Made by a program: the position numbers and the translations under genes. Below the pieces are notes generated by a model, which was given only the letters and a program-made list of their open reading frames with translations, ran no database searches and was not told the DNA's origin. From IMG/VR virus record IMGVR_UViG_3300046738_000007, positions 1 to 43,507 of that record: a DNA stretch of 43,507 nt; one strand, given 5' to 3'. This stretch comes from a virus. Taxonomy: Duplodnaviria > Caudoviricetes. Each line of letters starts with the position of its first letter. The first letter of the stretch is position 1. Of the stretch, positions 2,487 through 42,364 are shown piece after piece.

Positions 2487-5400
2487 TGGCGCCGTGGTGG
2501 TCCAAGATCACGCCAGACTATTACAAGAAGCCTTCCGGTCTGGGTGCGGCAGTGATGCCACGCGCACGCCAGATGGCAGCGGTGTATCACGACACTAGGC
2601 TCGGCGACCAGCCTGAGATCGCGGCGGCGTTTCTGAATGCGAACGTCCCGTACTCGGTGGCGCAGCGCGCAGACATCAAGACTCGGATCGCTAAGGCCCA
2701 GGCCACCCAGGCTATTCTCGCTGCGGGCGGTGTGCCCGACCAGGCCGACAAGGTCACTAAGCGGATTGTCGAAACCGAAAAGAAGCAGTACCAGATCACC
2801 GCGATGCGCAGGTATCTGGAAGAGAACGCGAGCGGTCTGCTCCCCGCCGCGTTCGACACCGTGCAAGAAGGCAGCCGGTCTAGCGTCAAGGGTCTCGGCT
2901 CGGCGCTCAACGCTGCGTACTCTGTGTTGACGGTTCCTGCCGCACTCTGGCGCGCTAACCAGGGCCCGGCTGATAACGCGGTCGGTAAGGTCGCTACTAC
3001 CGGACTCCGCGCAGTCAACGAGTCTGAGCGTGAAGGCTACGGCCCGTTCCAGTTTATGCCCGATATCAACAACCTGGTTGCTGATCTTGCCGGCGTCGCA
3101 ATCCCCGGCGCGCTAGGCGTGGGCCGCTACCTGGGCGCAGTCCCGCTCACGGGTACGCAGCAAGAAGACATGACGAAGCAGGGTTACGACCCTAACGACT
3201 TCTTCTCTCGGTACGCCTGGTATTACGACGGCCAGCAGGCAGGCCAGCGCGCGGTAGCTGACCAGGATGTCGCCTCCTTCTCCAAGGAGTACGGCGCTGA
3301 GAGCGCGCAAGCAGTACGCGAGATCTTGACGTCTAACGCGCTGAACGAAGGCAAGTTCGAGGGACTGAGTCCTAACGCGCAAGCTTTCATCGCTAAGGTT
3401 CAGACCGGCGACCAGCGCGCCAACGAAGTGTTCGAGCGCATGTCTAAGTCGGCTACGCTCCACCCCGGCTCAGTGATCGCTGACGTGTTTCAGATGGAAC
3501 GGGGTACTACGTCCGCGGCTGTCGTGTCAGTGCTTGGTGACCTGGCGCTGTACTGGATGGCAGACCCGGTGATGCTTGGCGTCAAGGCTGCCAGCTTTGG
3601 CCGGGCACTACATCGCTCGGTTCCCGCAGGAGATATCGCCGCGGGTGAGGCGAAGCTGCTTGCGCTCAAGGTGCCTGGCGAGATCGGGTCTGGTCCTGCC
3701 ACGTACGCCGGCTCTGCGATCGACGAGGTTATCGACGTCGCCGACATGATGAACATTGCGGAGTTCGGCGCCAAGGGTTTGTCGCGCGAGCAGGCAATCA
3801 ACTTTGAGAAGGCGCTGACCAACAAGATTGACCGGTTCAGGATCCGCCATCCTGACCTGATGAACCAGCTTGGCCCTGTCGCAAACATCTTGTCGGGCAA
3901 GCTGGACTTTATGTACGTTAAGTCTCAGGCTGAGATCGAGCTGGCTGCAACGCGGCTGTCGCGGGGGGAAAAGGTTGATCCGTACCTGCGGGTAAATCTC
4001 GGCGGGGCGAAGACTAGTCGGGCGCTCGCTCGTGACCTTGACGGCAAGGCGTCGCAGGCATCGCTGGACATGGCTCGCGGCGAGATCGTCAAGCGCCTCA
4101 GTACCTACATCTGGGGCGAAGCTATCGCTACCGGCCGGCCGATCATCAAGGGTCGGGTTCTGATGCCTGGCGAGGTGATGATCAACCGCGCTGTCCGCGG
4201 AGCTATCGCGCCGTATCGCAACGCACTACTCGGCCGAGGCACCCTGAAGCAGGCGTGGGATCAGACCAACGGGCTAGTGGTCCACTTCTCCGGCGACTTC
4301 GGTCGAGCAACCGACAACTTTATCGGCTCTCGCGCAGGCGACTGGACGAAGGTTCACTACACCACGAAGTGGGGCCCGACGTTCGAAAAGATCGTCAGCC
4401 GGTTTGATATGACGTTCTCGAACAAGCACCTCTCGTGGTCTGGCGCTGACGGTACCGAGGTGTTCCGCCGGTTCGCTATCACCTACTTTCCCCGACACAT
4501 GGCGTACGTCGCCTTGACTAAGTGGGCTACCGGTGGGCCGAATGAGCGCAAGGCGTTGTGGGAGCAGTTCGCCGAAGGCATGGCGCAGGCAGCGAACTTC
4601 AAGTCCAACCCGATCGCCGCGGCGGTCACCGATGTTTTGACCAAGGGTGCTTTGCCCCGGCTGCTCGCTGGCCAGAACGGCAACTACGCGCGGTCGGGAC
4701 CCAACGAAGCGTACGCTGCTAATGCTGCCGACAACACGATCAAGGCCGGCAACGATGACCTCGCTGCGGGTATCTGGGGCTACCAGATGGCGGACGGTGT
4801 CACTCTGCCGTCTATGCGCCTGATCAACGCCTACCAAAAGCGTGTCGGTCTACTGTCTGCGATTACCGGGTTTTTCAACTCGCGGATGATCTCGACGCTG
4901 ACCGCTATTTGGAAGGTCGGCAAAGTCGGCAACCCGGCCAACATGTTCCGCCAGACCGCCGAGCTTTACGCTATGGCCGCGGGCGAGCAGGGTCTCAAGT
5001 TCCTTCGCGAGGTCCGTCGCGCACGTAAGTTCGTCCTCGCTGAAAACCTGACCGCTAAGGCGGGAAGCCACGACCTCAGCCGCGCGGCCAACAAGGTTCA
5101 CGACAATGCGTACGTCCAGGATATCCGTGCGCTGGAAACGTTTGCGAAGCGGGGCGACTGGTTCACGTATCGACAGACGATCGCGCGCATGGCCCTAGCT
5201 AACGGCGCCAACCAGCGCGAGGCCCAGGCGCTGGCTAACCTCGCTGACGGCGTCAAGTTCGAGGATCTTGTCAAGGCTGGTGCGGGTGGTCGAGCCGGCC
5301 TCGCGCTCGCTGGCCCTATCGACATGTTCCGGCGTGCGCGGGTCGAATGGCTGAAGCGTACCGGCGGGAAGACCCCGTCCAGCTCCACGTGGGAAGTCTG

Positions 5401-8014
5401 GATCAGCAAGGACTTTCAGCAGAACGTGCAAGCCGGGTCGGTGTCTGATCTCGGCGACGCGGCCAGCTCGGCACTACAGCTCGGTAGCGCACGCAACGCC
5501 GCAACAGATATGGCTAGCGTAGCCGCCAGGTCGATCGGTGGACGCCGTCCGATCATTCCGAACTCGCGCGACTGGATGGGCGCAGCCGGCGACTCGGGTG
5601 CACAAAACTGGTTCCGCGAGCTTGACGCACGAATGACCGATCCTGCTGGTGGCGGTGACGTTCTGCGCGCGGTAGCGATCGAGGCCCGGCAGACCGGCAG
5701 TGCAAGCGCTGCGCAGGTTCTCAATCAGCCGCACAACATGGCAGCCCGCGGCGTCACGCATTCGTACCCGCCTGGCGTCAACACGGCCGAAGAGATCGCC
5801 GAATACATTATCCGGCACGACCCGCGCGGGGAACTGTTGCGCACGAACGCGATGCGCCTCGCGTACGAGAACGGCTCTCGGGTTACTACTGCTGCCCAGT
5901 TGGACACTGCTGTCGGGGAGCTTGTGCAGGTTCAGCTTCGCGAGGCAGCGCGACACCTGGGCGGCAGGTTCGACAACGCCTCTGGCAAGTTTGTGTACGA
6001 CGCCGCGTACGGGCCCAACCTGGACAAGATCGCGAAGGGTGGCCACCTGCGGCTGGAGGATCTGTCCAAGATCAAGAGCAACCTGCGCCCGGAGTCGCTG
6101 TCCACCCCGATTTTCGTGCCGCGGCTGGTCGAGCCGTCCAAGGAAAAGATCGCCGACATGGCGAGCAAGTTGTACGGGTTTACTGTGGCTCATCCGCTAC
6201 AGAGACTGGCGATCAACCCGACGTACATCGCGAACCGCACTATCGCGTACCGCGAGCTTGCCCCGGCTGCCGATGCTCTGATCGCGCGTGGGCTCAAGCC
6301 GGAACAGGCCGGCGCGTTCCTCGAACTGCAAGCCAACCGGTACGCGGTCAACACCACGTTCCGCTACACAGACAACTCGTTCGAGCAGTCGTTTTTCTCC
6401 GAGCTGACTGATAATTTCCTGATGTTCCAGCGCGCGGCCGAAGACTTTATTCGCCGGTTTATGATGGTGACCAAGGCCAACCCGGCAATCCTGTCCAAGG
6501 CGTATCTCCTGATGGAGGCAGCGCAGCACTCCGGCGTCATCTACCCGAACGCTGACAAGGACGGCGAAGGCAACCCGGATCCGCACCTTGTCTTCACGTT
6601 CCCCGGCTCGGGCATCATGGCGCAAGCTATCGCCGAGGGTGGTCGCGCACTCGGGTTTGGCGACACCGACCTGATCAAGACCGCGCTGTACTCCAGCATG
6701 TCCAGTCAGTTGCGGTTCATCAACCCGTCGTTGTCCAACCCGTTCGGGTTCTCGACTACACCAATGATCGGTATGCCGATGCGTATCGTCCGGTCGTGGT
6801 TCCCCGAGACGTACCGGCCTATCACCGAAACGCTGGCGCGTATCGAGGGTGGCGGCGAGGAGTTCTTCGCAGAGCAGAACGTCGTGCAGTCGATCCTGCC
6901 TACCCCGCTTGCTCGGCTGCTGCCGGCTATCACGCAAAACGATCAGGATGGCCAGCTCGCATCAGCGATCCGCAACGCACTCGTGTACTTCACTGCGAGC
7001 GGGAACATGCCCGGCCCGGACGCAACCGCAGATGAGATCGAGGAAGCTAACGACGCGGTCCGGACCCAGGCTACCAACCAGATCATCTGGCGCGCGATTA
7101 TCGGGTCGTTCTCGCCGTGGTCCCCTGCGTACAACGCGCCGTTGGGTCTCGACCTGCCCGAGGTCAACGCGGTCGATCAAGCGCGGGGTATCAACTCGCT
7201 GCGCTCCGAGTGGTTCGAGATCCTGTCTCAGCAGTCCGAGAAGTACGCTGGGTACGAAGGGTTCGCGCACGCGCTCACAGAATGGGGCACTCGGTACCCG
7301 CACGGTAAGAGCATCCTCAACCCCGAGGCGTTTGTTGTCGGGACTACGCGCGCACCCGGGACTGCCGAGGGTGCCGGCTCGTTCAACTCTGGTCCCCGGC
7401 TTACCGAATGGCTGATGGCCAACAAGGAGTGGGTCAGGTCCAACGCCGCGGTTGCGTACTACTTGCTGCCGCAGTTCGCCGAGGACAACTTTTCCGCTGC
7501 GGGTATGCGTGAGCAGCTTATCAACGAGGTTCGCGAACACAAAGACTCGACTGAGTTTTACCGTGACTTGCGTCAGCGTGTCGGTGAGCGCGAATGGTGG
7601 GATCGGTACAAGCAGCGCAACGCCGAGCTTGCCCGGGGCAACAGGCCCGCTACTGCGGTGTACCGCGACTTCTCCGAATGGGAAGCAGGTTGGCGTACCG
7701 CGCACCCGGCTACCGCCGCAGAGATGGACCGCAAGCAAGACCCGAACACTACCCACTCTGTGGTTGCACCGGCGCTCGGCCGGCTTGTCGAATCGGGGCA
7801 GGCCCCCGCTGACGTGAACCTCGATCTCGCCCGCCAGGTTTGGGAGCATTACCGCGAGTACCGCGATAGGTACAATAAGACCGTTACCGGCGATAAGGGC
7901 CTGTACGACCGCCGCGGCCTCAACAAGAAGTACCGCGAAGATGGGGACCAGCTTTTCCTGGGCACGCCCGCTGAGGAGCTTTGGAACGCTATGAATGTTT
8001 ACGAGGGTGACTAA
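2486..8014 (+). CDS. very large internal virion / DNA ejection protein
   Basis: 1842 aa, Ala-rich and helical-looking, in the virion operon; size fits podovirus ejection proteins; no tape-measure context. Confidence 0.6.
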   Translation: MAPWWSKITPDYYKKPSGLGAAVMPRARQMAAVYHDTRLGDQPEIAAAFLNANVPYSVAQRADIKTRIAKAQATQAILAAGGVPDQADKVTKRIVETEKKQYQITAMRRYLEENASGLLPAAFDTVQEGSRSSVKGLGSALNAAYSVLTVPAALWRANQGPADNAVGKVATTGLRAVNESEREGYGPFQFMPDINNLVADLAGVAIPGALGVGRYLGAVPLTGTQQEDMTKQGYDPNDFFSRYAWYYDGQQAGQRAVADQDVASFSKEYGAESAQAVREILTSNALNEGKFEGLSPNAQAFIAKVQTGDQRANEVFERMSKSATLHPGSVIADVFQMERGTTSAAVVSVLGDLALYWMADPVMLGVKAASFGRALHRSVPAGDIAAGEAKLLALKVPGEIGSGPATYAGSAIDEVIDVADMMNIAEFGAKGLSREQAINFEKALTNKIDRFRIRHPDLMNQLGPVANILSGKLDFMYVKSQAEIELAATRLSRGEKVDPYLRVNLGGAKTSRALARDLDGKASQASLDMARGEIVKRLSTYIWGEAIATGRPIIKGRVLMPGEVMINRAVRGAIAPYRNALLGRGTLKQAWDQTNGLVVHFSGDFGRATDNFIGSRAGDWTKVHYTTKWGPTFEKIVSRFDMTFSNKHLSWSGADGTEVFRRFAITYFPRHMAYVALTKWATGGPNERKALWEQFAEGMAQAANFKSNPIAAAVTDVLTKGALPRLLAGQNGNYARSGPNEAYAANAADNTIKAGNDDLAAGIWGYQMADGVTLPSMRLINAYQKRVGLLSAITGFFNSRMISTLTAIWKVGKVGNPANMFRQTAELYAMAAGEQGLKFLREVRRARKFVLAENLTAKAGSHDLSRAANKVHDNAYVQDIRALETFAKRGDWFTYRQTIARMALANGANQREAQALANLADGVKFEDLVKAGAGGRAGLALAGPIDMFRRARVEWLKRTGGKTPSSSTWEVWISKDFQQNVQAGSVSDLGDAASSALQLGSARNAATDMASVAARSIGGRRPIIPNSRDWMGAAGDSGAQNWFRELDARMTDPAGGGDVLRAVAIEARQTGSASAAQVLNQPHNMAARGVTHSYPPGVNTAEEIAEYIIRHDPRGELLRTNAMRLAYENGSRVTTAAQLDTAVGELVQVQLREAARHLGGRFDNASGKFVYDAAYGPNLDKIAKGGHLRLEDLSKIKSNLRPESLSTPIFVPRLVEPSKEKIADMASKLYGFTVAHPLQRLAINPTYIANRTIAYRELAPAADALIARGLKPEQAGAFLELQANRYAVNTTFRYTDNSFEQSFFSELTDNFLMFQRAAEDFIRRFMMVTKANPAILSKAYLLMEAAQHSGVIYPNADKDGEGNPDPHLVFTFPGSGIMAQAIAEGGRALGFGDTDLIKTALYSSMSSQLRFINPSLSNPFGFSTTPMIGMPMRIVRSWFPETYRPITETLARIEGGGEEFFAEQNVVQSILPTPLARLLPAITQNDQDGQLASAIRNALVYFTASGNMPGPDATADEIEEANDAVRTQATNQIIWRAIIGSFSPWSPAYNAPLGLDLPEVNAVDQARGINSLRSEWFEILSQQSEKYAGYEGFAHALTEWGTRYPHGKSILNPEAFVVGTTRAPGTAEGAGSFNSGPRLTEWLMANKEWVRSNAAVAYYLLPQFAEDNFSAAGMREQLINEVREHKDSTEFYRDLRQRVGEREWWDRYKQRNAELARGNRPATAVYRDFSEWEAGWRTAHPATAAEMDRKQDPNTTHSVVAPALGRLVESGQAPADVNLDLARQVWEHYREYRDRYNKTVTGDKGLYDRRGLNKKYREDGDQLFLGTPAEELWNAMNVYEGD

Positions 8015-32130: not shown

Positions 32131-32472
32131 GTGGCTGTGCCACGTCGAACGTTCGACCGGGTTGAGAAATATGACATAGGCCCCGTCCTGGAATACCTAG
32201 GCGCCACACTCCCGTACTCACGCCGAGGTGGATGGCAGAAGATGCGGTGCTTCCTTCACGCCGATCAGAACCCGTCCGCCTCGGTCAACTTTCTGTCCGG
32301 ATACTTCCGCTGCTTCTCGTGCGGTGTGTTCGAGGATGCGATAGGACTATTGCAACATGTCGAAGGCACAGACTTTAAAGCTGCCCACGAAGAAGCGCAG
32401 AGACTATCTGGCGAAGGCGACGGACAGATACGTCGGAACAATAGCCCCCGTCACACCTTATTTGGCGAGTAG
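32131..32472 (+). CDS. DNA primase, CHC2 zinc-finger part
   Basis: CFLH.D.NPSASVN....FRCFSC. Confidence 0.85.
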   Translation: MAVPRRTFDRVEKYDIGPVLEYLGATLPYSRRGGWQKMRCFLHADQNPSASVNFLSGYFRCFSCGVFEDAIGLLQHVEGTDFKAAHEEAQRLSGEGDGQIRRNNSPRHTLFGE

Positions 32473-33010
32473 AGGTATCACGATCGAGACTGCTACTCGG
32501 TGGCGCCTCGGGTATGTAGCTGACCCGCTGCCGGGACACGAAGACTACATCGGCAGGCTTGCTATCCCGTACCTGACACCAGCCGGCACACTGATGTTCA
32601 AGTTCCGGTGCATCCAAGAGCACGACTGCAAAGAAGCGAAGTGCGTCAAGTACCTTGGCGAAGCCGGCGAGGTGCCACGCTTGTTCGGGGTATGGAACTT
32701 TAGGCACGACGCACAAACGATAGCGCTCACGGAAGGGGAGCTTGATGCCATCGTGGCAACACAAGCAGGTGTACGGGCTGTCGGTGTCCCTGGTGCAACG
32801 CAATGGCAAGGTTATTGGGATCACCTTTTCGAGGGGTACGACGAAGTGGTACTACTCCGCGACGGTGATGCGGCGGGCCGAGCGATGAGTGAAACGCTAG
32901 CGGGTCGTTTGCCAAACTTGCGTTCAGTCAAGATGCCCGAGGGTGAAGACGTCTCGTCGTTCGTGTGCACGCACGGAGAGGAGGCGTTGCGAGAGAGGAT
33001 CAAAGTGTGA
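32357..33010 (+). CDS. DNA primase, TOPRIM part
   Basis: YLASRGI, TEGELDA, AVGVPGA, DGDAAG and GEDV. Confidence 0.85.
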   Translation: MSKAQTLKLPTKKRRDYLAKATDRYVGTIAPVTPYLASRGITIETATRWRLGYVADPLPGHEDYIGRLAIPYLTPAGTLMFKFRCIQEHDCKEAKCVKYLGEAGEVPRLFGVWNFRHDAQTIALTEGELDAIVATQAGVRAVGVPGATQWQGYWDHLFEGYDEVVLLRDGDAAGRAMSETLAGRLPNLRSVKMPEGEDVSSFVCTHGEEALRERIKV

Positions 33011-35104: not shown

Positions 35105-35130
35105 TTGACTCGGCGGTGTGTCACACCGCC

Positions 35131-35185
35131 CGGCCCCTGCCTCCCTGGTCACCCTCTCCACCAGGTCTGAGGCAGGGGCCGCTTT
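35131..35185. terminator. long hairpin at the convergence of the two arms
   Basis: CGGCCCCTGCCTC/GAGGCAGGGGCCG plus CCTGGT/ACCAGG. Confidence 0.6.
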
Positions 35186-35188
35186 GCG

Positions 35189-35503
35189 CTACGACACACC
35201 TTGCCCGATGCTGAACGCGATCAGGCTGAGAAAGAACACGATCGTCACCAGGTCGGATGTCGACCAGCGCTGCCGGTTACACCCGCACGACCACGAACGG
35301 TGCACATCGCACCACACGCTGCGCTTGAACGCGCCGACGTTGCACGTACAGTTCCTCGGTGCGCAAACCATGCATCGATACGTCATCTCATCCCTTGCAC
35401 CCAGACTCGTGCGCAGACTTGGCCGCTTCTGCGTCCGCGAAGTCATCAGAAGATCCACCAGCGCCGCAACCTTTCGCGCACGACCAGCTCCACACACCGT
35501 CAC
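35189..35503 (-). CDS. hypothetical Cys-rich membrane-anchored protein
   Basis: Several Cys pairs; C-terminal transmembrane segment. Confidence 0.45.
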   Translation of the reverse strand: MTVCGAGRARKVAALVDLLMTSRTQKRPSLRTSLGARDEMTYRCMVCAPRNCTCNVGAFKRSVWCDVHRSWSCGCNRQRWSTSDLVTIVFFLSLIAFSIGQGVS

Positions 35504-35968: not shown

Positions 35969-36208
35969 TCACGACCCGTACACAATCTTGATCCGGTCCC
36001 AGTCGGCGGGGTACATCACACCGTAGTGCCGCTTGAGCGAGGACAGGCACAGCTCGTACGCGATACCGCCGCGCACGTCCCCTTCCGCGTACGCTTTCGC
36101 CATGTCCTTCTCGAACATCTCGGCCAGGTTCTTAGCCTCGGTCTTGAGGTAGCCGGTCGTCAGCCGGATCGGCTCAGCCTTCGCCGCAAAAGCCATCGTC
36201 GTCTCCAT
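35969..36208 (-). CDS. hypothetical protein
   Basis: ORF in the right-arm operon. Confidence 0.5.
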   Translation of the reverse strand: METTMAFAAKAEPIRLTTGYLKTEAKNLAEMFEKDMAKAYAEGDVRGGIAYELCLSSLKRHYGVMYPADWDRIKIVYGS

Positions 36209-36599
36209 CCCTCTCGCCGGGCAGGCACGGGTGACCGGTGTTCCCGGTCCGCTTCTTCTTGCTGGTGTTCACGTCCGGATCAGGGTCCGGGTCGGCAGCC
36301 GGTGGTGGCGGCTGCGTGGTTGCAGGCGCGGGTCGTGTCGTCACCGGCACAGGGCGGGGAGCTTGCGTCGTGCGCTTCGGAGGCGGCGGGGTAGTCACAG
36401 GCGGGTGGCCGGGCGGGGTCACCGAAGGCAGCGTCACCGGCGCAGTAGTAGTAGGCAGCGGGATCACCACCGCAGGCAGCGGGGCACGTGTTGTCGTAGG
36501 CGGTGGGCTGGTCGCCCGGCCTGGCTTGCCGCACTGAGCCAGCAGCACGAGCACACACCCGACCACAACAAGACCTACGATAATTCTTTTAGTACGCAC
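36174..36599 (-). CDS. Pro/Thr-rich putative lipoprotein
   Basis: Basic N-terminus, hydrophobic stretch and LAQC; P/T linker; C-terminal RDGDDDGFCGE (Excalibur-like Ca-binding loop). Confidence 0.6.
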   Translation of the reverse strand: MRTKRIIVGLVVVGCVLVLLAQCGKPGRATSPPPTTTRAPLPAVVIPLPTTTAPVTLPSVTPPGHPPVTTPPPPKRTTQAPRPVPVTTRPAPATTQPPPPAADPDPDPDVNTSKKKRTGNTGHPCLPGERDGDDDGFCGEG

Positions 36600-36600
36600 G

Positions 36601-36675
36601 CACCCCCGGCGGGATTCGAACCCGCACCCTCTCCGTTTCATAGACGGATGACTCTGCCAATTCGTCCACGGGGGT
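36601..36675 (-). tRNA. tRNA with anticodon ATG (nominally His); no encoded CCA
   Basis: ACCCCCG/CGGGGGT acceptor; GAC..TGG..GTC D arm; TCCGT-CTATGAA-ACGGA; GCGGG-TTCGAAT-CCCGC. Confidence 0.8.
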
Positions 36676-36679
36676 TAGC

Positions 36680-36777
36680 GCCGTCCGTATCCCTAACCTG
36701 GCCTGATAGTTGCCGAACATGTGGTGTTGATATGGGAGACCACGACAAGTACCACTGAGCGCCGGGATACGGACGGC
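36680..36777 (-). ncRNA. structured RNA domain closed by a perfect 14-bp stem
   Basis: GCCGTCCGTATCCC/GGGATACGGACGGC with internal stems; lies between two tRNA-like elements. Confidence 0.6.
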
Positions 36778-36806
36778 TTTGCGGGTGGCATATCGCTACG
36801 CCACCG

Positions 36807-36955
36807 TGGGGGTGGCGGGACTCGAACCCGCCTCTACCTGCTGTCATGCTTTGTACCTAACGCTTGTAGGTACGCGCGAGTGAGTGACAGGAAATCCTGT
36901 GAGGTCCCGCTGAAGCATGCACTACTGCAAGTGTGCACTCGTACACTAAACCCCC
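36807..36955 (-). ncRNA. tRNA-like RNA with an 85-nt structured insert replacing the anticodon loop
   Basis: GGGGGTT/CACCCCC-A; T8A9; GTGT/GCAC D stem; CTTGC/GCAGG; canonical T arm GCGGG-TTCGAGT-CCCGC. Confidence 0.75.
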
Positions 36956-36985
36956 TGCGCGCCGAGCAGGCTCGGCGCTACTGAT

Positions 36986-37099
36986 AGCGCGGGCGGGACC
37001 GGTCATGTAGTCGCATCGCAGCCAACCAGCCCGCTGCAATAACCGGTCCTCTTCTGTGGCTGTCCGTGCGACTGGTGGTTGCCGCCTTACGCCCGCGCT
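36986..37099 (-). ncRNA. structured RNA domain with a potential pseudoknot
   Basis: 10-bp closing stem AGCGCGGGCG/CGCCCGCGCT and two crossing internal helices. Confidence 0.55.
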
Positions 37100-37102
37100 T
37101 GT

Positions 37103-37276
37103 TCAGATAACCCGCAGCGCGGCGAGCAGCACCGACACGGCTACCGACCCGCCCAACCCTGCGACCGCGAGGCACACCCGCTCAAGGCGCAGGTTCGCTG
37201 CGCGCCGACGCACCAGCCACCGACGGTTGATCTCACGCTGGTCGGCTGCGAGCCCGGCCTGCTGGTGCTGGTTCAC
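37103..37276 (-). CDS. small membrane protein
   Basis: GTGA overlap with lsr2; C-terminal transmembrane segment. Confidence 0.5.
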   Translation of the reverse strand: MNQHQQAGLAADQREINRRWLVRRRAANLRLERVCLAVAGLGGSVAVSVLLAALRVI

Positions 37277-37863
37277 GATGCCTGCGCCTGCTCGTACGCC
37301 TTGATCATGTCCTCGGTCGGCTTGCGCCGTGAGTGGTGGATCGTGAATCCGTTGGACCGGGCCCACTCCAGCACCACCTTCGGAGGGGGCATGATTCCCT
37401 TGTCCACCCGAGGGACAGACGTGAGCGTGCGCTTGTTGCCGCCGGTGTTGCCGCCGTGCACCTCGCACCCCTCCAGGTCCTCGCACTCGTCGCGGTGGTG
37501 TCCGTACGTTGCCGGCTGTGGCTTCTCGTCCCGCTTGTCGTACGCCTCAAGCAGCGCAGCCGGGATGCGCCCGCGGTCGGGGACCTTGAACCCGTGCTCA
37601 CGACCCCACGCGCGGACCAGGTCGTTGTCCTCACGCTTCACTGCCTCGACGCGTGAGCGATGACCCACCCTGCCTGGCCTGTTCGTCGGGTTGGCGAGGC
37701 GCCCGGCGTCGATGTGACGGGCCAGCGTGGTGACGAACTCCTGGATGTGGTCGTCGTTCAAGTCCACCGAGTACCACTTCCCGGCGTATCCGAACAAGAC
37801 CGTACCGGTAGCCTCCGTCTCACCGTCCAGGTCGTCGACCAGCGTGCGAGTGATCTTCTCCAT
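37273..37863 (-). CDS. lsr2: Lsr2-like nucleoid protein with a duplicated DNA-binding domain
   Basis: LVDDLDG...TVLFG...YSVDL dimerisation domain; VRAWGREHGFKVPDRGRIP; second copy VLEWARSNGFTI..RRKP...AY; SD AGGAG. Confidence 0.85.
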   Translation of the reverse strand: MEKITRTLVDDLDGETEATGTVLFGYAGKWYSVDLNDDHIQEFVTTLARHIDAGRLANPTNRPGRVGHRSRVEAVKREDNDLVRAWGREHGFKVPDRGRIPAALLEAYDKRDEKPQPATYGHHRDECEDLEGCEVHGGNTGGNKRTLTSVPRVDKGIMPPPKVVLEWARSNGFTIHHSRRKPTEDMIKAYEQAQAS

Positions 37864-38056
37864 CGATACATCTCCTGTTGACAAGGCCAGCATTCAGGCT
37901 GGCACCTACGATTCGAACCAACCTAGCGGAACAGCACAGCGAGGACAACAGCACCGACCGACACAAGCACAGTCAGTACGAGCATCAACGCTGCCAGCCA
38001 GCGCAACCCCGGCGGTGGGCCAGCCGGGTCCGGGTGCGGAGCCGACCAGTTCCGAC

Positions 38057-38941: not shown

Positions 38942-39100
38942 TCAGCCACACTCGTGCTCTTCGGCTGCGAGGACCACGTAGTCCAGCTCCACCACATCGT
39001 GCGTCCACATCCCGATGTCACCACCACACGTGACGTGCCTGGCTGTGATGTAGCTGCGAGCCAGCGCGCGAAGCTCGACCTCGGAAAAGTCCTCGATCAT
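38942..39100 (-). CDS. hypothetical protein
   Basis: TGATG-coupled MIEDFSEVEL... Confidence 0.5.
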   Translation of the reverse strand: MIEDFSEVELRALARSYITARHVTCGGDIGMWTHDVVELDYVVLAAEEHECG

Positions 39101-39495
39101 CAGCTCTTCCCCTCGTACCGGTCCATCACAACACGCATGCAGTCGGTCGGGTGGTGGTGACGCTCGTACCCGAACTCGGTGGTGTACATGCCCCAGTTGC
39201 TGCCCCACCCACGCCCGTCGTAGCTCACGGTCTGCACCGTCTTGCCGTTCAGTTGAACGTGGTACTCGGCCGGCGTGCGCTGGACCAGCGCCCACCCCTT
39301 GACGTGCTGCCAGGCCGACGGCAGGTACCCACGCTTCGGCGCAGACAACCACGTGTCGAGGTCGGTGAACGCGTCGCGCGCCTGGTCGAACAGTTCGTGG
39401 ATCCATGCACCCTGCGGGGTGCCGTCGCCTCGCTCGTCCTCCCATTCGCTGACCGCCTCGCGCAGCCGGGCCAACGTCTCGTTCGGGTCACTCAT
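39100..39495 (-). CDS. hypothetical protein
   Basis: MSDPNETLARLR...; preceded by the conserved GAGTGACAGGAG leader. Confidence 0.65.
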   Translation of the reverse strand: MSDPNETLARLREAVSEWEDERGDGTPQGAWIHELFDQARDAFTDLDTWLSAPKRGYLPSAWQHVKGWALVQRTPAEYHVQLNGKTVQTVSYDGRGWGSNWGMYTTEFGYERHHHPTDCMRVVMDRYEGKS

Positions 39496-39501
39496 GTCCT
39501 G

Positions 39502-39513
39502 CTCCTGTCACTC
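39502..39513 (-). repeat. start-associated leader GAGTGACAGGAG, copy 3
   Basis: Identical 12-mer at 39721-39732 and 40629-40640, each 6-7 nt before an ATG. Confidence 0.8.
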
Positions 39514-39573: not shown

Positions 39574-39714
39574 TCAGCTCACGATCGACTCGCACTCCCA
39601 GCACGTCACCGGGTCCGAGGTCGGCTCCGGTGCACACGCAGGCATCATCGCGTTGCCGCACACCGGCGTCATGCCCTCGGCTGCGTGCACCACGTCGTCG
39701 TAACGGACGTTCAT
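39574..39714 (-). CDS. small Cys-containing protein (46 aa)
   Basis: MNVRYDDVVHAA...PVTCWEC; follows the conserved leader. Confidence 0.55.
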   Translation of the reverse strand: MNVRYDDVVHAAEGMTPVCGNAMMPACAPEPTSDPVTCWECESIVS

Positions 39715-39720
39715 CTCTGT

Positions 39721-39732
39721 CTCCTGTCACTC
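39721..39732 (-). repeat. start-associated leader GAGTGACAGGAG, copy 2
   Basis: Same 12-mer as copy 3. Confidence 0.8.
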
Positions 39733-40291: not shown

Positions 40292-40364
40292 GACTGCCAC
40301 TCCTTCGCGTCTGAGGAACCATGGCAAGACAGGGACCCTGCGCCCCTGCCCCACCACGAGCTGC

Positions 40365-40565
40365 TCAGACGTAGCACCGCACCTCAGCCACCGTGCGGTC
40401 CGAGATGCGCGACCACAACCCGTCGAACAGCGGGACGTACCCGGTGCACGCGAGGTGGTCGACCGCAGCCAGCAAGGTGCCCGCATCAATCGCACCCTGC
40501 TCGACACCACCGCGGCGAATCACGATCCAGACCTCGGCGTAGTCGGCGACCTGCGTGGTGCTCAT
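40365..40565 (-). CDS. hypothetical protein
   Basis: ATGA-coupled ORF. Confidence 0.5.
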   Translation of the reverse strand: MSTTQVADYAEVWIVIRRGGVEQGAIDAGTLLAAVDHLACTGYVPLFDGLWSRISDRTVAEVRCYV

Positions 40566-40621
40566 GCTGCGAGGTGCTTCGCGGAGGTGTGCTTCCTGCG
40601 CTTGCGGTGCTTACCCGGCAT
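40562..40621 (-). CDS. 19-aa basic peptide MPGKHRKRRKHTSAKHLAA
   Basis: Follows the conserved leader; ATGA overlap with the next gene. Confidence 0.45.
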   Translation of the reverse strand: MPGKHRKRRKHTSAKHLAA

Positions 40622-40628
40622 GTCCTGT

Positions 40629-40640
40629 CTCCTGTCACTC
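40629..40640 (-). repeat. start-associated leader GAGTGACAGGAG, copy 1
   Basis: Same 12-mer as copy 3. Confidence 0.8.
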
Positions 40641-40954
40641 GGTGCTGCTGACAGGAAGAACACTACGGGCCAGGCCAGGGCTGCACAGCCGCCAAACGGA
40701 GCAATCGTGGGAAATCTGGATTAGGCCGAATGCGCAGCCGGCGTGCAGGCCACCTGGAGAGGAGACGAACGCGTACGCGCGATACACCACGCCGGCCTGG
40801 CACGCCAGGTGTGTCACCCGAATAGCGTATCGGCATCCGGCGCAATCGGCGAGGTCCCGGAATTAGACCGAATGGTGGCTGTGCTGCCATGATCAACTGG
40901 ATAGGCTTGAGGCTTCGCTACCACGTATATCAACAGGGATACCGGGCAGGCAGA

Positions 40955-41160
40955 GGTGGGAGGGGGGCGGGGGCGCGGGAATGATGATCATAACATGTGT
41001 ATTTGCGCAGGTCAGAGGCTTGCACCGCGCGCGCGAGCTGGCCCGGGGCCGGCGCCGGGGTGACCTGGGTGTTTATATATGTGTGTGTATATATATGTAA
41101 CTACCCTCGACGATTTTTCCGTCGATACCCGTACATAGGGGGTACAGGGGGGGTAGTCCT
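40955..41160. other. non-coding low-complexity region, candidate genome terminus/packaging region
   Basis: G-tracts, a 26-nt alternating RY tract and short inverted repeats; no credible ORF. Confidence 0.45.
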
Positions 41161-42025: not shown

Positions 42026-42364
42026 TCAGTTGTTAGGGAGAGGTCTGCTCTCGGTGACTCCGGGCCGAGCTGTTGGCCAAGGACTAGTTTCTAGCCCCGG
42101 CTGCCTCACCTCCCCGGTCTCGACGTTCTTGTTCCAATGCCTAGGTTCGTCGCCTCCTTCTACGGCCCACAGCTTCGCTGCCGCTGTCGCTCGTAGCAAG
42201 GTCACCTCGCCCCGGCCGAAGTAGCAAAACCCCGCGGTGCAATACGAGATGTCGCTTCGCGGAACTTTCACCAACCGGTAGTTAAAGATCATCGGTCGGA
42301 TGATGTAATACGACTCCGAGTCTTCGGCTGCGAGGATGCCCCACTCTTCTAGCGTGTAGGTCAT
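42026..42364 (-). CDS. hypothetical protein
   Basis: SD GGAGG; PMIFNYRLV...FCY...WNK. Confidence 0.55.
   Translation of the reverse strand: MTYTLEEWGILAAEDSESYYIIRPMIFNYRLVKVPRSDISYCTAGFCYFGRGEVTLLRATAAAKLWAVEGGDEPRHWNKNVETGEVRQPGLETSPWPTARPGVTESRPLPNN

Follow-up and report, generated by a model that had tools for sequence, protein, structure and literature searches.

RNase P releases the C4 RNA of phages P1 and P7 from a precursor, and this RNA masks ribosome-binding sites (PMC5320573, partial text). In the cluster K mycobacteriophages, 13-bp start-associated sequences (SAS) have been described (Pope et al. 2011, PMC3203893, partial text), four K1 genomes carry a single reversed SAS copy, and the available part of that paper left open whether an RNA or a protein binds the SAS. 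For the T4 species 1 and 2 RNAs (rnaC and rnaD) the function is given as unknown in the available parts of three papers (PMC3014915, PMC9697503, PMC12685909), and in M. smegmatis the tRNA-like RNAs YrlA and YrlB are cut from a single precursor (PMC4201824, partial text).

We report that positions 36601-37099 of an uncultivated phage genome, minus strand, are a real non-coding RNA cassette of ~500 bases. What is new here, as read from the sequence, is that one of its units, a tRNA frame referred to as TL, carries an insert complementary to a motif over the Shine-Dalgarno sequence of three right-arm genes, and that the reversed SAS of the K1 phages lies in a conserved hairpin loop. In a literature search that tested absence weakly, no account was found of an anti-SAS RNA or of this cassette.

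The window, i.e. the whole stretch of DNA analysed, is a virus record of 43,507 bases (97% complete, 62% GC) with PHROG and Pfam matches to portal, capsid, tail, a tyrosine integrase and a replication module; its right arm consists of minus-strand small genes, including one for an Lsr2-like protein (PHROG, Pfam). The capsid protein is 39-45% identical to those of Streptomyces phages of the Beephvirinae and 50-51% identical to those of prophages in Lentzea and Umezawaea, and because of these relatives the phage is likely temperate with an actinobacterial host. The DNA primase at 32131-33010 is present as two overlapping ORFs in different frames, as is also the case in Streptomyces phage Kumquat and other relatives. 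The surroundings of the cassette include the following features.

40987..41015, minus strand: promoter-like site with an extended -10, a candidate for right-arm transcription (weak: 2 sites found against 1.2 expected)
37273-37893, minus strand: Lsr2-like gene (Lsr2 Pfam matches)
37103..37276, minus strand: small ORF with a hydrophobic C-terminus, upstream of the cassette and after the Lsr2-like gene (GC3 0.83)
36174..36599, minus strand: ORF of 141 aa downstream of the cassette, likely GTG start, 1 nt after the tRNA discriminator

A search with the Lsr2-like protein gave a single full-length relative, which came without genomic context. The downstream 141-aa ORF has a signal-peptide-like N-terminus, a Pro/Thr linker and an excalibur-like C-terminal motif, and its Atlas matches (0.85-0.87) are a lead only.

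The cassette itself consists of six structured units, listed here in transcript order together with the insert of TL. They had been described in an earlier note on this DNA, and all were found on the minus strand at the positions it gave and fold as it described (z-scores per unit are against 200 dinucleotide shuffles).

36986..37099, minus strand: D1, a 114-nt closed domain (fold z -3.62; no family match)
36959..36978, minus strand: hp1, an 8-bp hairpin in the 5' leader of TL (z -3.82)
36807..36955, minus strand: TL, a 149-nt tRNA frame (fold z -3.88; missed by ARAGORN)
36842..36926, minus strand: branched insert of 85 nt in place of the TL anticodon loop (from the fold; length counted from the sequence)
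36784..36805, minus strand: hp2, a 9-bp hairpin with a GCGA tetraloop directly 3' of TL (z -3.83)
36680..36777, minus strand: D3, a 98-nt domain with a perfect 14-bp closing stem, between the tRNA bodies (z -5.08; no family match)
36601..36675, minus strand: irregular tRNA with anticodon AUG (z -2.96; ARAGORN tRNA-His(atg); Rfam RF00005)

The entire region folds with a z of -5.93, and 0/100 shuffles were equally good. Among 499-nt minus-strand tiles it ranked top of 86 with a score of -6.7, the runner-up having -3.7 (85 other tiles, mean -0.15, sd 1.3; 8 shuffles per tile, pooled sd), with boundaries that were picked post hoc and 100-nt shifts lowering the score to -4.0 and -2.9; with fixed 100-nt tiles the region is not singled out (z -2.1 to 0.0). 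Two strong hairpins lie elsewhere in the genome, one at 35130-35190 where both arms converge (tile z -5.3; likely a terminator) and one at 40301-40400 between right-arm genes (tile z -8.3). In the sequencing runs of a second soil study an identical 151-nt piece of 36871-37021 was present, with zero variants.

The plus strand folds nearly as well (z -2.8, -3.8, -4.8), and folding alone is therefore insufficient to call the strand; the assignment to the minus strand made in the earlier note holds by virtue of two canonical T arms and not through folding by itself. These T arms, 206 nt apart, bear out the T arm said to be shared by both tRNA bodies, the acceptor/T-arm half being kept in both, and the chance expectation per shuffled genome (n=300) is 0.07 T arms and 0.007 T-arm-plus-acceptor units.

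The absence of a convincing ORF was likewise borne out. Five overlapping ORFs (60-175 aa) gave no PHROG match and have a GC3 of non-coding type (0.55-0.63 vs 0.83-0.85 for the two genes immediately upstream), and a protein-coding reading of 36601-37099 was rejected. An attP reading was also rejected, the integrase being 12 kb off and the cassette lying far from the integrase in related prophages as well. ARAGORN and Rfam called only the final unit of the cassette; the proposed Rfam search for GOLLD, YrlA, tmRNA and ribozymes gave none of these above threshold, with the tRNA as the sole pass, and D1 and D3 had no match up to E 10 (GOLLD, ROOL, self-cleaving ribozymes etc.).

TL has an acceptor stem of 6 pairs and a U7-C66 mismatch followed by U8 and A9, a 5-bp D hairpin with a 4-nt loop without GG, a 5-bp anticodon stem, a 5-nt variable loop, a canonical T arm and A73, with CCA not encoded. 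The insert folds as a 7-bp stem bearing two arms. As a canonical tRNA, TL fails on the 7-nt anticodon loop, which the 85-nt insert replaces, and it is called by neither ARAGORN nor Rfam. Several other identities were considered and rejected. For an intron-containing tRNA, inspection gave no join that restores a loop with U33 and a purine at 37, the fold has no bulge-helix-bulge, and no intron family matched. For a tmRNA or TLD-only tmRNA, TL has G3-C70 and not G3-U70, the D hairpin is paired and the conserved 5' motif is absent; the Rfam tmRNA scores were 14.5 and 15.4 bits vs a threshold of 47, the 14.5-bit match covering the T arm only. A YrlA-type Y RNA was rejected for the cassette, since the GNCGAAN0-1G motif has no exact match in the array, no Ro60 gene (PF05731; expected within ~4 kb) is found in the 97% complete record, and the permuted T-acceptor-D module scored 13.7 bits vs 69 (E 9). 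Finally, no C4 family was among the Rfam matches to E 10.

The last unit scores 53.6 bits vs a threshold of 29 with RF00005, aligned over the full model, and its minimum-energy fold differs from the cloverleaf. It has A1-U72, G73, A at -1, a Leu-type D arm and a short variable loop, and CCA is not encoded. Identity of tRNA-His involves G-1 and C73 together with a GUG anticodon. By these rules the A at -1 and G73 imply that this tRNA is not a HisRS substrate, and with its AUG anticodon the assignment as tRNA-His was rejected. Its best match is a weak one to a Beephvirinae tRNA-Leu (E 0.019). Of 242 His codons counted in the ORFs, 30 are CAU. In the Kumquat tRNA array A34 anticodons are frequent, but these belong to four-codon boxes. 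The AUG-anticodon tRNA is probably a processing mark or decoy and not a His decoder.

The central observation concerns the TL insert, for which self-comparison of the genome and folding gave these elements.

36881..36894, minus strand: anti-motif in the TL insert, complement of three ribosome-binding motifs
40629..40640, minus strand: target motif 1 (GAGTGACAGGAG), covering the Shine-Dalgarno of the 19-aa ORF that starts at 40621
39721..39732, minus strand: target motif 2, covering the Shine-Dalgarno of the 46-aa ORF that starts at 39714
39502..39513, minus strand: target motif 3, covering the Shine-Dalgarno of the 131-aa ORF that starts at 39495

The 11-mer GAGTGACAGGA occurs in exactly 4 copies in 43.5 kb, both strands counted, with zero 1-mismatch copies. 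Three are sense copies 6-7 nt before an ATG and cover AGGAG; the fourth is reversed and lies in TL at 36892-36882, with the TL copy and the sense copies being made from the same strand. The complementarity between insert and targets amounts to 11 Watson-Crick pairs, or 12-14 with one G-U. Complementarity to the ribosome-binding sites of the phage's own genes, which marks C4-type RNAs, is thus found here over 12-14 nt at three sites. A reading of the reversed motif as the ribosome site of a plus-strand gene was rejected, this gene having only 4 codons.

Dinucleotide-shuffled arrays matched a thrice-repeated right-arm 11-mer in 0/3000 cases and any of the 142 thrice-repeated 11-mers of the genome in 111/3000 (p ~0.04); the match was noticed post hoc and the true chance therefore lies between these two figures. 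None of 169 other minus-strand windows matched the right-arm repeat set, and the corresponding whole-genome control on real windows (148/169) is invalid because the windows include the repeats themselves. The antisense content of the array is otherwise ordinary, with 4 stretches of at least 12 nt (p 0.03 against shuffles) and 29/169 real windows reaching 4. A second thrice-repeated right-arm 11-mer (37237-37251, 38961-38971, 42324-42334) lies within coding frames and is complementary to the apical region of D1 over 10-15 nt with one G-U, which is not significant; the 15-nt D1 complement to 37251-37237 was rejected, with p 0.07 for the longest match and no formation in cis. Two D3 segments (9 + 8 nt) facing a 16-nt right-arm leader stretch at 40927-40943 gave no co-fold and were also set aside.

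Six nucleotides of the anti-motif, CACUCA, are predicted to be unpaired (P 0.91-1.0), with the complement of the Shine-Dalgarno sequestered in a 5-bp hairpin, which gives a toehold-like layout with an opening cost of 7.0 kcal/mol. Three binding predictions count against an antisense role. The predicted net binding of TL to the three sites is modest (-6.5, -4.7 and 0.0 kcal/mol), a coding-region match at 6977-6989 outscores all three (-7.4 kcal/mol), and co-folding beats the separate folds at only 1/3 sites, via a rearrangement of TL.

TL looks like a payload rather than a mere processing mark, because its insert is antisense to three ribosome-binding sites. As the main reading we put forward that the cassette with TL is a C4-like antisense RNA on a tRNA scaffold, which would be released by RNase P and block translation at the three right-arm sites; we give this a probability of roughly 45%. 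The right arm would be transcribed from the promoter-like site near 41000, such that the targets come first and the cassette ~4 kb further downstream. RNase P reads the acceptor/T-arm half of a tRNA, and it would be expected to cut 5' of 36955 and 36675; the acceptor mismatch and the GG-less D loop of TL may weaken its cleavage. That CCA is not encoded is compatible with such cuts, RNase P being able to process CCA-less precursors in vivo (PMC1874595, partial text). The 3' ends would be made by RNase Z, or by exonucleolytic trimming and CCA addition, leaving TL stable. The 6 unpaired bases are predicted to seed pairing, after which the 5-bp hairpin would unzip into a 12-14-bp duplex over AGGAG, and with TL at the three ribosome sites translation of those genes would be damped. 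Since transcription reaches the cassette later than its targets and its RNA would build up, the outcome might be delayed negative feedback on promoter-proximal early genes, or damping in the lysogen as for C4 in P1. The hp2 and D3 units would be released as a by-product or a second RNA, and D1 would most likely stay on the upstream message and protect its 3' end.

The earlier note had further taken the tRNA-like units to be marks that release several RNAs from one transcript. In favour of this are the acceptor/T-arm halves kept in both bodies, the precedents and the cassettes of related phages; against it, D1 has no 5' mark, only hp2 and D3 lie between the tRNA bodies, and both 3' trailers, that of TL and that of the tRNA, begin with C. 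RNase Z is suppressed by cytidines after the discriminator (PMC7479834), and clean RNase Z punctuation is therefore uncertain. D1 has a 10-bp terminal stem, a long inner stem and a side hairpin, and without a 5' processing mark it may remain a 3' UTR. It starts 3 nt past the stop of the 54-aa ORF upstream and its closing stem has P 0.85-1.0 in context, and both features would suit a role in cis only, in which the operon is split by RNase P, the 3' end of the upstream mRNA is shielded by D1 and hp1, and cleavage after the tRNA leaves the message of the downstream secreted protein almost without a leader. A start codon 1 nt past the tRNA discriminator is found both here (36599) and in a relative (L295:2592), for unrelated ORFs, which likewise agrees with such a role. 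But one tRNA would be enough for it, leaving over the 85-nt folded insert, D3 and the anti-motif; in other relatives a separate Shine-Dalgarno follows the cassette, and the C following the discriminator disfavours an exact RNase Z cut. As the whole explanation we regard a cis role as improbable; it is compatible with the antisense explanation as an additional role, and the alternatives discussed here are not all mutually exclusive. With respect to the two starts themselves, their sole Shine-Dalgarno-like run is the G-rich 3' acceptor strand, and their placement suggests processing-linked leaderless translation.

Comparison with related phages bears on both the C4-like reading and its competitors. 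Neither D1, D3 nor the TL insert had a sequence homologue, the matches being T arms or short chance matches only. No cassette homologue was present in 50,697 phage records, 72,556 plasmids or 299 fetched loci (blastn/nhmmer); 401 genomes of the order holding Lentzea, queried with D1, hp1 and most of TL (D3 excluded), gave 2 matches of 24-32 nt; IMG/VR pattern scans gave 3 and 4 matches, which are chance except for the locus the pattern came from, and a JGI metagenome pattern scan gave 0. For this reason neither the structure nor the target pairing has support from covariation.

Nevertheless, T-arm-bearing non-tRNA cassettes are present in 7/12 related records inspected (structural-arm fragments and G004 being left out of the 12), and a strict scan passes 4 of these; five records (G011-G015) have no T-arm elements besides ordinary tRNAs. 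The cassettes of the relatives have T arms alone in common with the present one and are of similar build. Among the relatives with a full cassette the closest is L296 (phosphoesterase 71% identical), where hairpins are accompanied by a TLD-only tmRNA, a tRNA frame whose anticodon insert is folded, and a closing hairpin.

L296:3322-3402 and 3402-3497: TLD-only mini-tmRNA (G3-U70, A73; Rfam 54.2 bits vs 47), then the tRNA frame with anticodon insert

In L295 (phosphoesterase 73%) the syntenic position is occupied by a closed stem and a Leu-like frame that is degenerate, two Lentzea prophages have a closed domain flanked by two tRNA-like frames, and G002, G005 and G008 have looser T-arm elements. 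The two Lentzea cassettes (L188:16282-16557 and L192:2525-2822) differ by a 29-nt insertion and a swapped first frame. In G005 (L197:15157-15427) a ~270-nt structured RNA without Rfam match lies upstream of a WhiB-like gene, its 3' end being formed by a T arm plus an acceptor that may have a G3-U70 pair; a likeness of D1 to its 5' part failed on comparison. The Kumquat array contains, at L018:8008-8251, a 244-nt unit without annotation that consists of an invariant hairpin and a tRNA-like frame with large inserts. This Beephvirinae unit is found in 15 records at 75-100% identity and varying array positions, has no Rfam match, and shows both-side changes at 15/76 pairs (4 sequences). The recurring builds and these paired changes together indicate that tRNA-framed ncRNAs under structural selection are a feature of the lineage. 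Kumquat also has a circularly permuted tRNA-like unit (L018:7084-7166; T arm, loop-closed acceptor stem, D arm) with a weak YrlA score of 20.6 bits and no Ro60 annotated in the record. In addition, a conserved non-coding stretch of ~180 nt follows the lone right-arm tRNA in Kumquat (L018:24625-24800) and Manuel (L208:937-1117), with 68% identity over 288 nt including the tRNA.

The cassette might be the decaying remnant of a tRNA array, the four motif copies being protein-binding sites at the DNA level or recombination scars without an RNA role. Arrays of ~21 tRNAs do occur in the Beephvirinae and 1-3 tRNAs in other relatives, the cassette sequence is conserved in no relative and 5/12 related records have no such cassette. 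Yet decay would erode the pairing of the insert, D1 and D3, which is almost perfect (z -3.6 to -5.1), and the T arms are intact; the paired changes in the 244-nt unit and the AGGAG held at correct ATG spacing in all three sense motifs argue in the same direction, and we consider decay to be quite unlikely.

A more probable alternative is that the units are stable tRNA mimics that would decoy tRNA-binding proteins of the host (SmpB, synthetases, or anticodon nucleases from toxin-antitoxin and defence systems), comparable to T4 rnaC/rnaD and the DS6A TLD-only tmRNA, with the antisense match as a by-product of an inverted motif copy. L296 carries its TLD-only tmRNA beside a tRNA frame with anticodon insert, a TLD-like molecule inhibits tmRNA (PMC4131195, partial text), and T4 rnaC is an acceptor and T arm with enlarged arms; moreover, the relatives' cassettes share just T arms with this one and have no anti-motifs, and the tRNA at 36601-36675 is without His identity, irregular tRNA polycistrons unused in translation being known (PMC5389517, partial text). 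Such a decoy role leaves unexplained why the sole reversed copy of a private ribosome-binding motif sits, part-exposed, in the TL insert, and with no G3-U70 or tmRNA 5' motif in TL and no YrlA motif in the array no decoy target can be named. We judge it unlikely, if less so than decay or a purely cis role.

The motif of the present phage is an SAS-type repeat, i.e. it is asymmetric, has AGGAG near the ATG, and occurs in the non-structural arm in one orientation (3/3 sense copies). SAS-like repeats before right-arm start codons were also seen in Kumquat (8 copies; L018 right arm) and G011 (5 copies; L301). The cassettes of relatives with such repeats (Kumquat, G011, Lentzea prophages) contain no anti-motif of at least 10 nt. 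Among the cluster K phages, the right half of Adephagia has 15 sense SAS copies and 1 reversed copy. Genes 92 and 93 are separated by a gap that contains a long hairpin, and the core of the reversed copy makes up the unpaired 10-nt loop of this hairpin.

L327:28650-28725 (~58650-58725 of Adephagia JF704105), gene-coding strand: candidate anti-SAS hairpin with the reversed SAS in its loop

The element was matched in 131 records. In an alignment of 6 phages, with 5 chosen for their divergence, 5/6 share the same loop and the 18-pair stem is kept; counted against it are both-side changes at only 1/18 pairs and records that annotate a hypothetical protein across the hairpin. The half of the TM4 genome that was examined yielded 10 sense copies and none in reverse orientation. 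It is a doubtful extension, if somewhat more credible to us than the decoy explanation, that the SAS of actinophages are address tags for a phage-made antisense RNA with the single reversed copy as the regulator, this RNA being mounted on an RNase P-released tRNA scaffold here and in a hairpin loop in K1, such that dispersed early genes would be co-silenced and the cassette would be a modular platform for lineage-specific RNAs (anti-ribosome-site RNA, mini-tmRNA and others).

If the antisense reading is true, TL would be a natural tRNA scaffold displaying an antisense regulator, with C4-like logic on a true tRNA frame, and such an RNA is invisible to ARAGORN and Rfam. It would also provide a testable answer to the question raised in 2011 of what binds the mycobacteriophage SAS (PMC3203893, partial text); the K1 phages are cultured and genetically tractable, and their reversed SAS copy is thus open to direct testing. 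More generally, this phage lineage appears to hold fast-changing, unannotated cassettes of tRNA-shaped RNAs.

Compared with the known systems (each cited paper being available in part), the T4 rnaC and rnaD RNAs are likewise structured non-decoding RNAs adjoining tRNAs, but there is no sequence similarity, the T4 cluster has 8 normal tRNAs, and the available text reports no antisense target (PMC3014915, PMC9697503, PMC12685909). The DS6A TLD-only tmRNA (PMC4131195, PMC11915505) also keeps the tRNA-like top half without a decoding loop, from which TL differs by its G3-C70, its paired D hairpin and the absence of the tmRNA 5' motif. The YrlA/YrlB Y RNAs (PMC4201824) differ in that the cassette is without the permuted arm order, the GNCGAAN0-1G motif or a phage Ro60 gene. 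The irregular tRNA polycistrons of Mukai et al. (PMC5389517) are also tandem tRNA-like genes from soil, some of them charged but unused in translation; in contrast, they are 8/4 or E-loop cloverleaves near toxin-antitoxin genes, and no anticodon insert is reported in the available text. The P1/P7 C4 RNA (PMC5320573) shares with the present case a temperate phage, cutting by RNase P from a longer transcript and loops that pair with phage mRNA, as is predicted for TL; C4 is a 77-nt RNA of three stems with two target loops, whereas TL, at 149 nt, is a tRNA frame that has a canonical T arm and a single complement of 12-14 nt. With the cluster K SAS (PMC3203893) the motif has in common an AGGAG-bearing asymmetric repeat just before the ATG of non-structural genes with wide upstream gaps, and one reversed copy away from gene starts; the sequence and consensus are different, there are 3 copies here vs 11-19, and whereas the K1 phages carry the reversed copy in a plain hairpin loop, here it is part of a tRNA frame.
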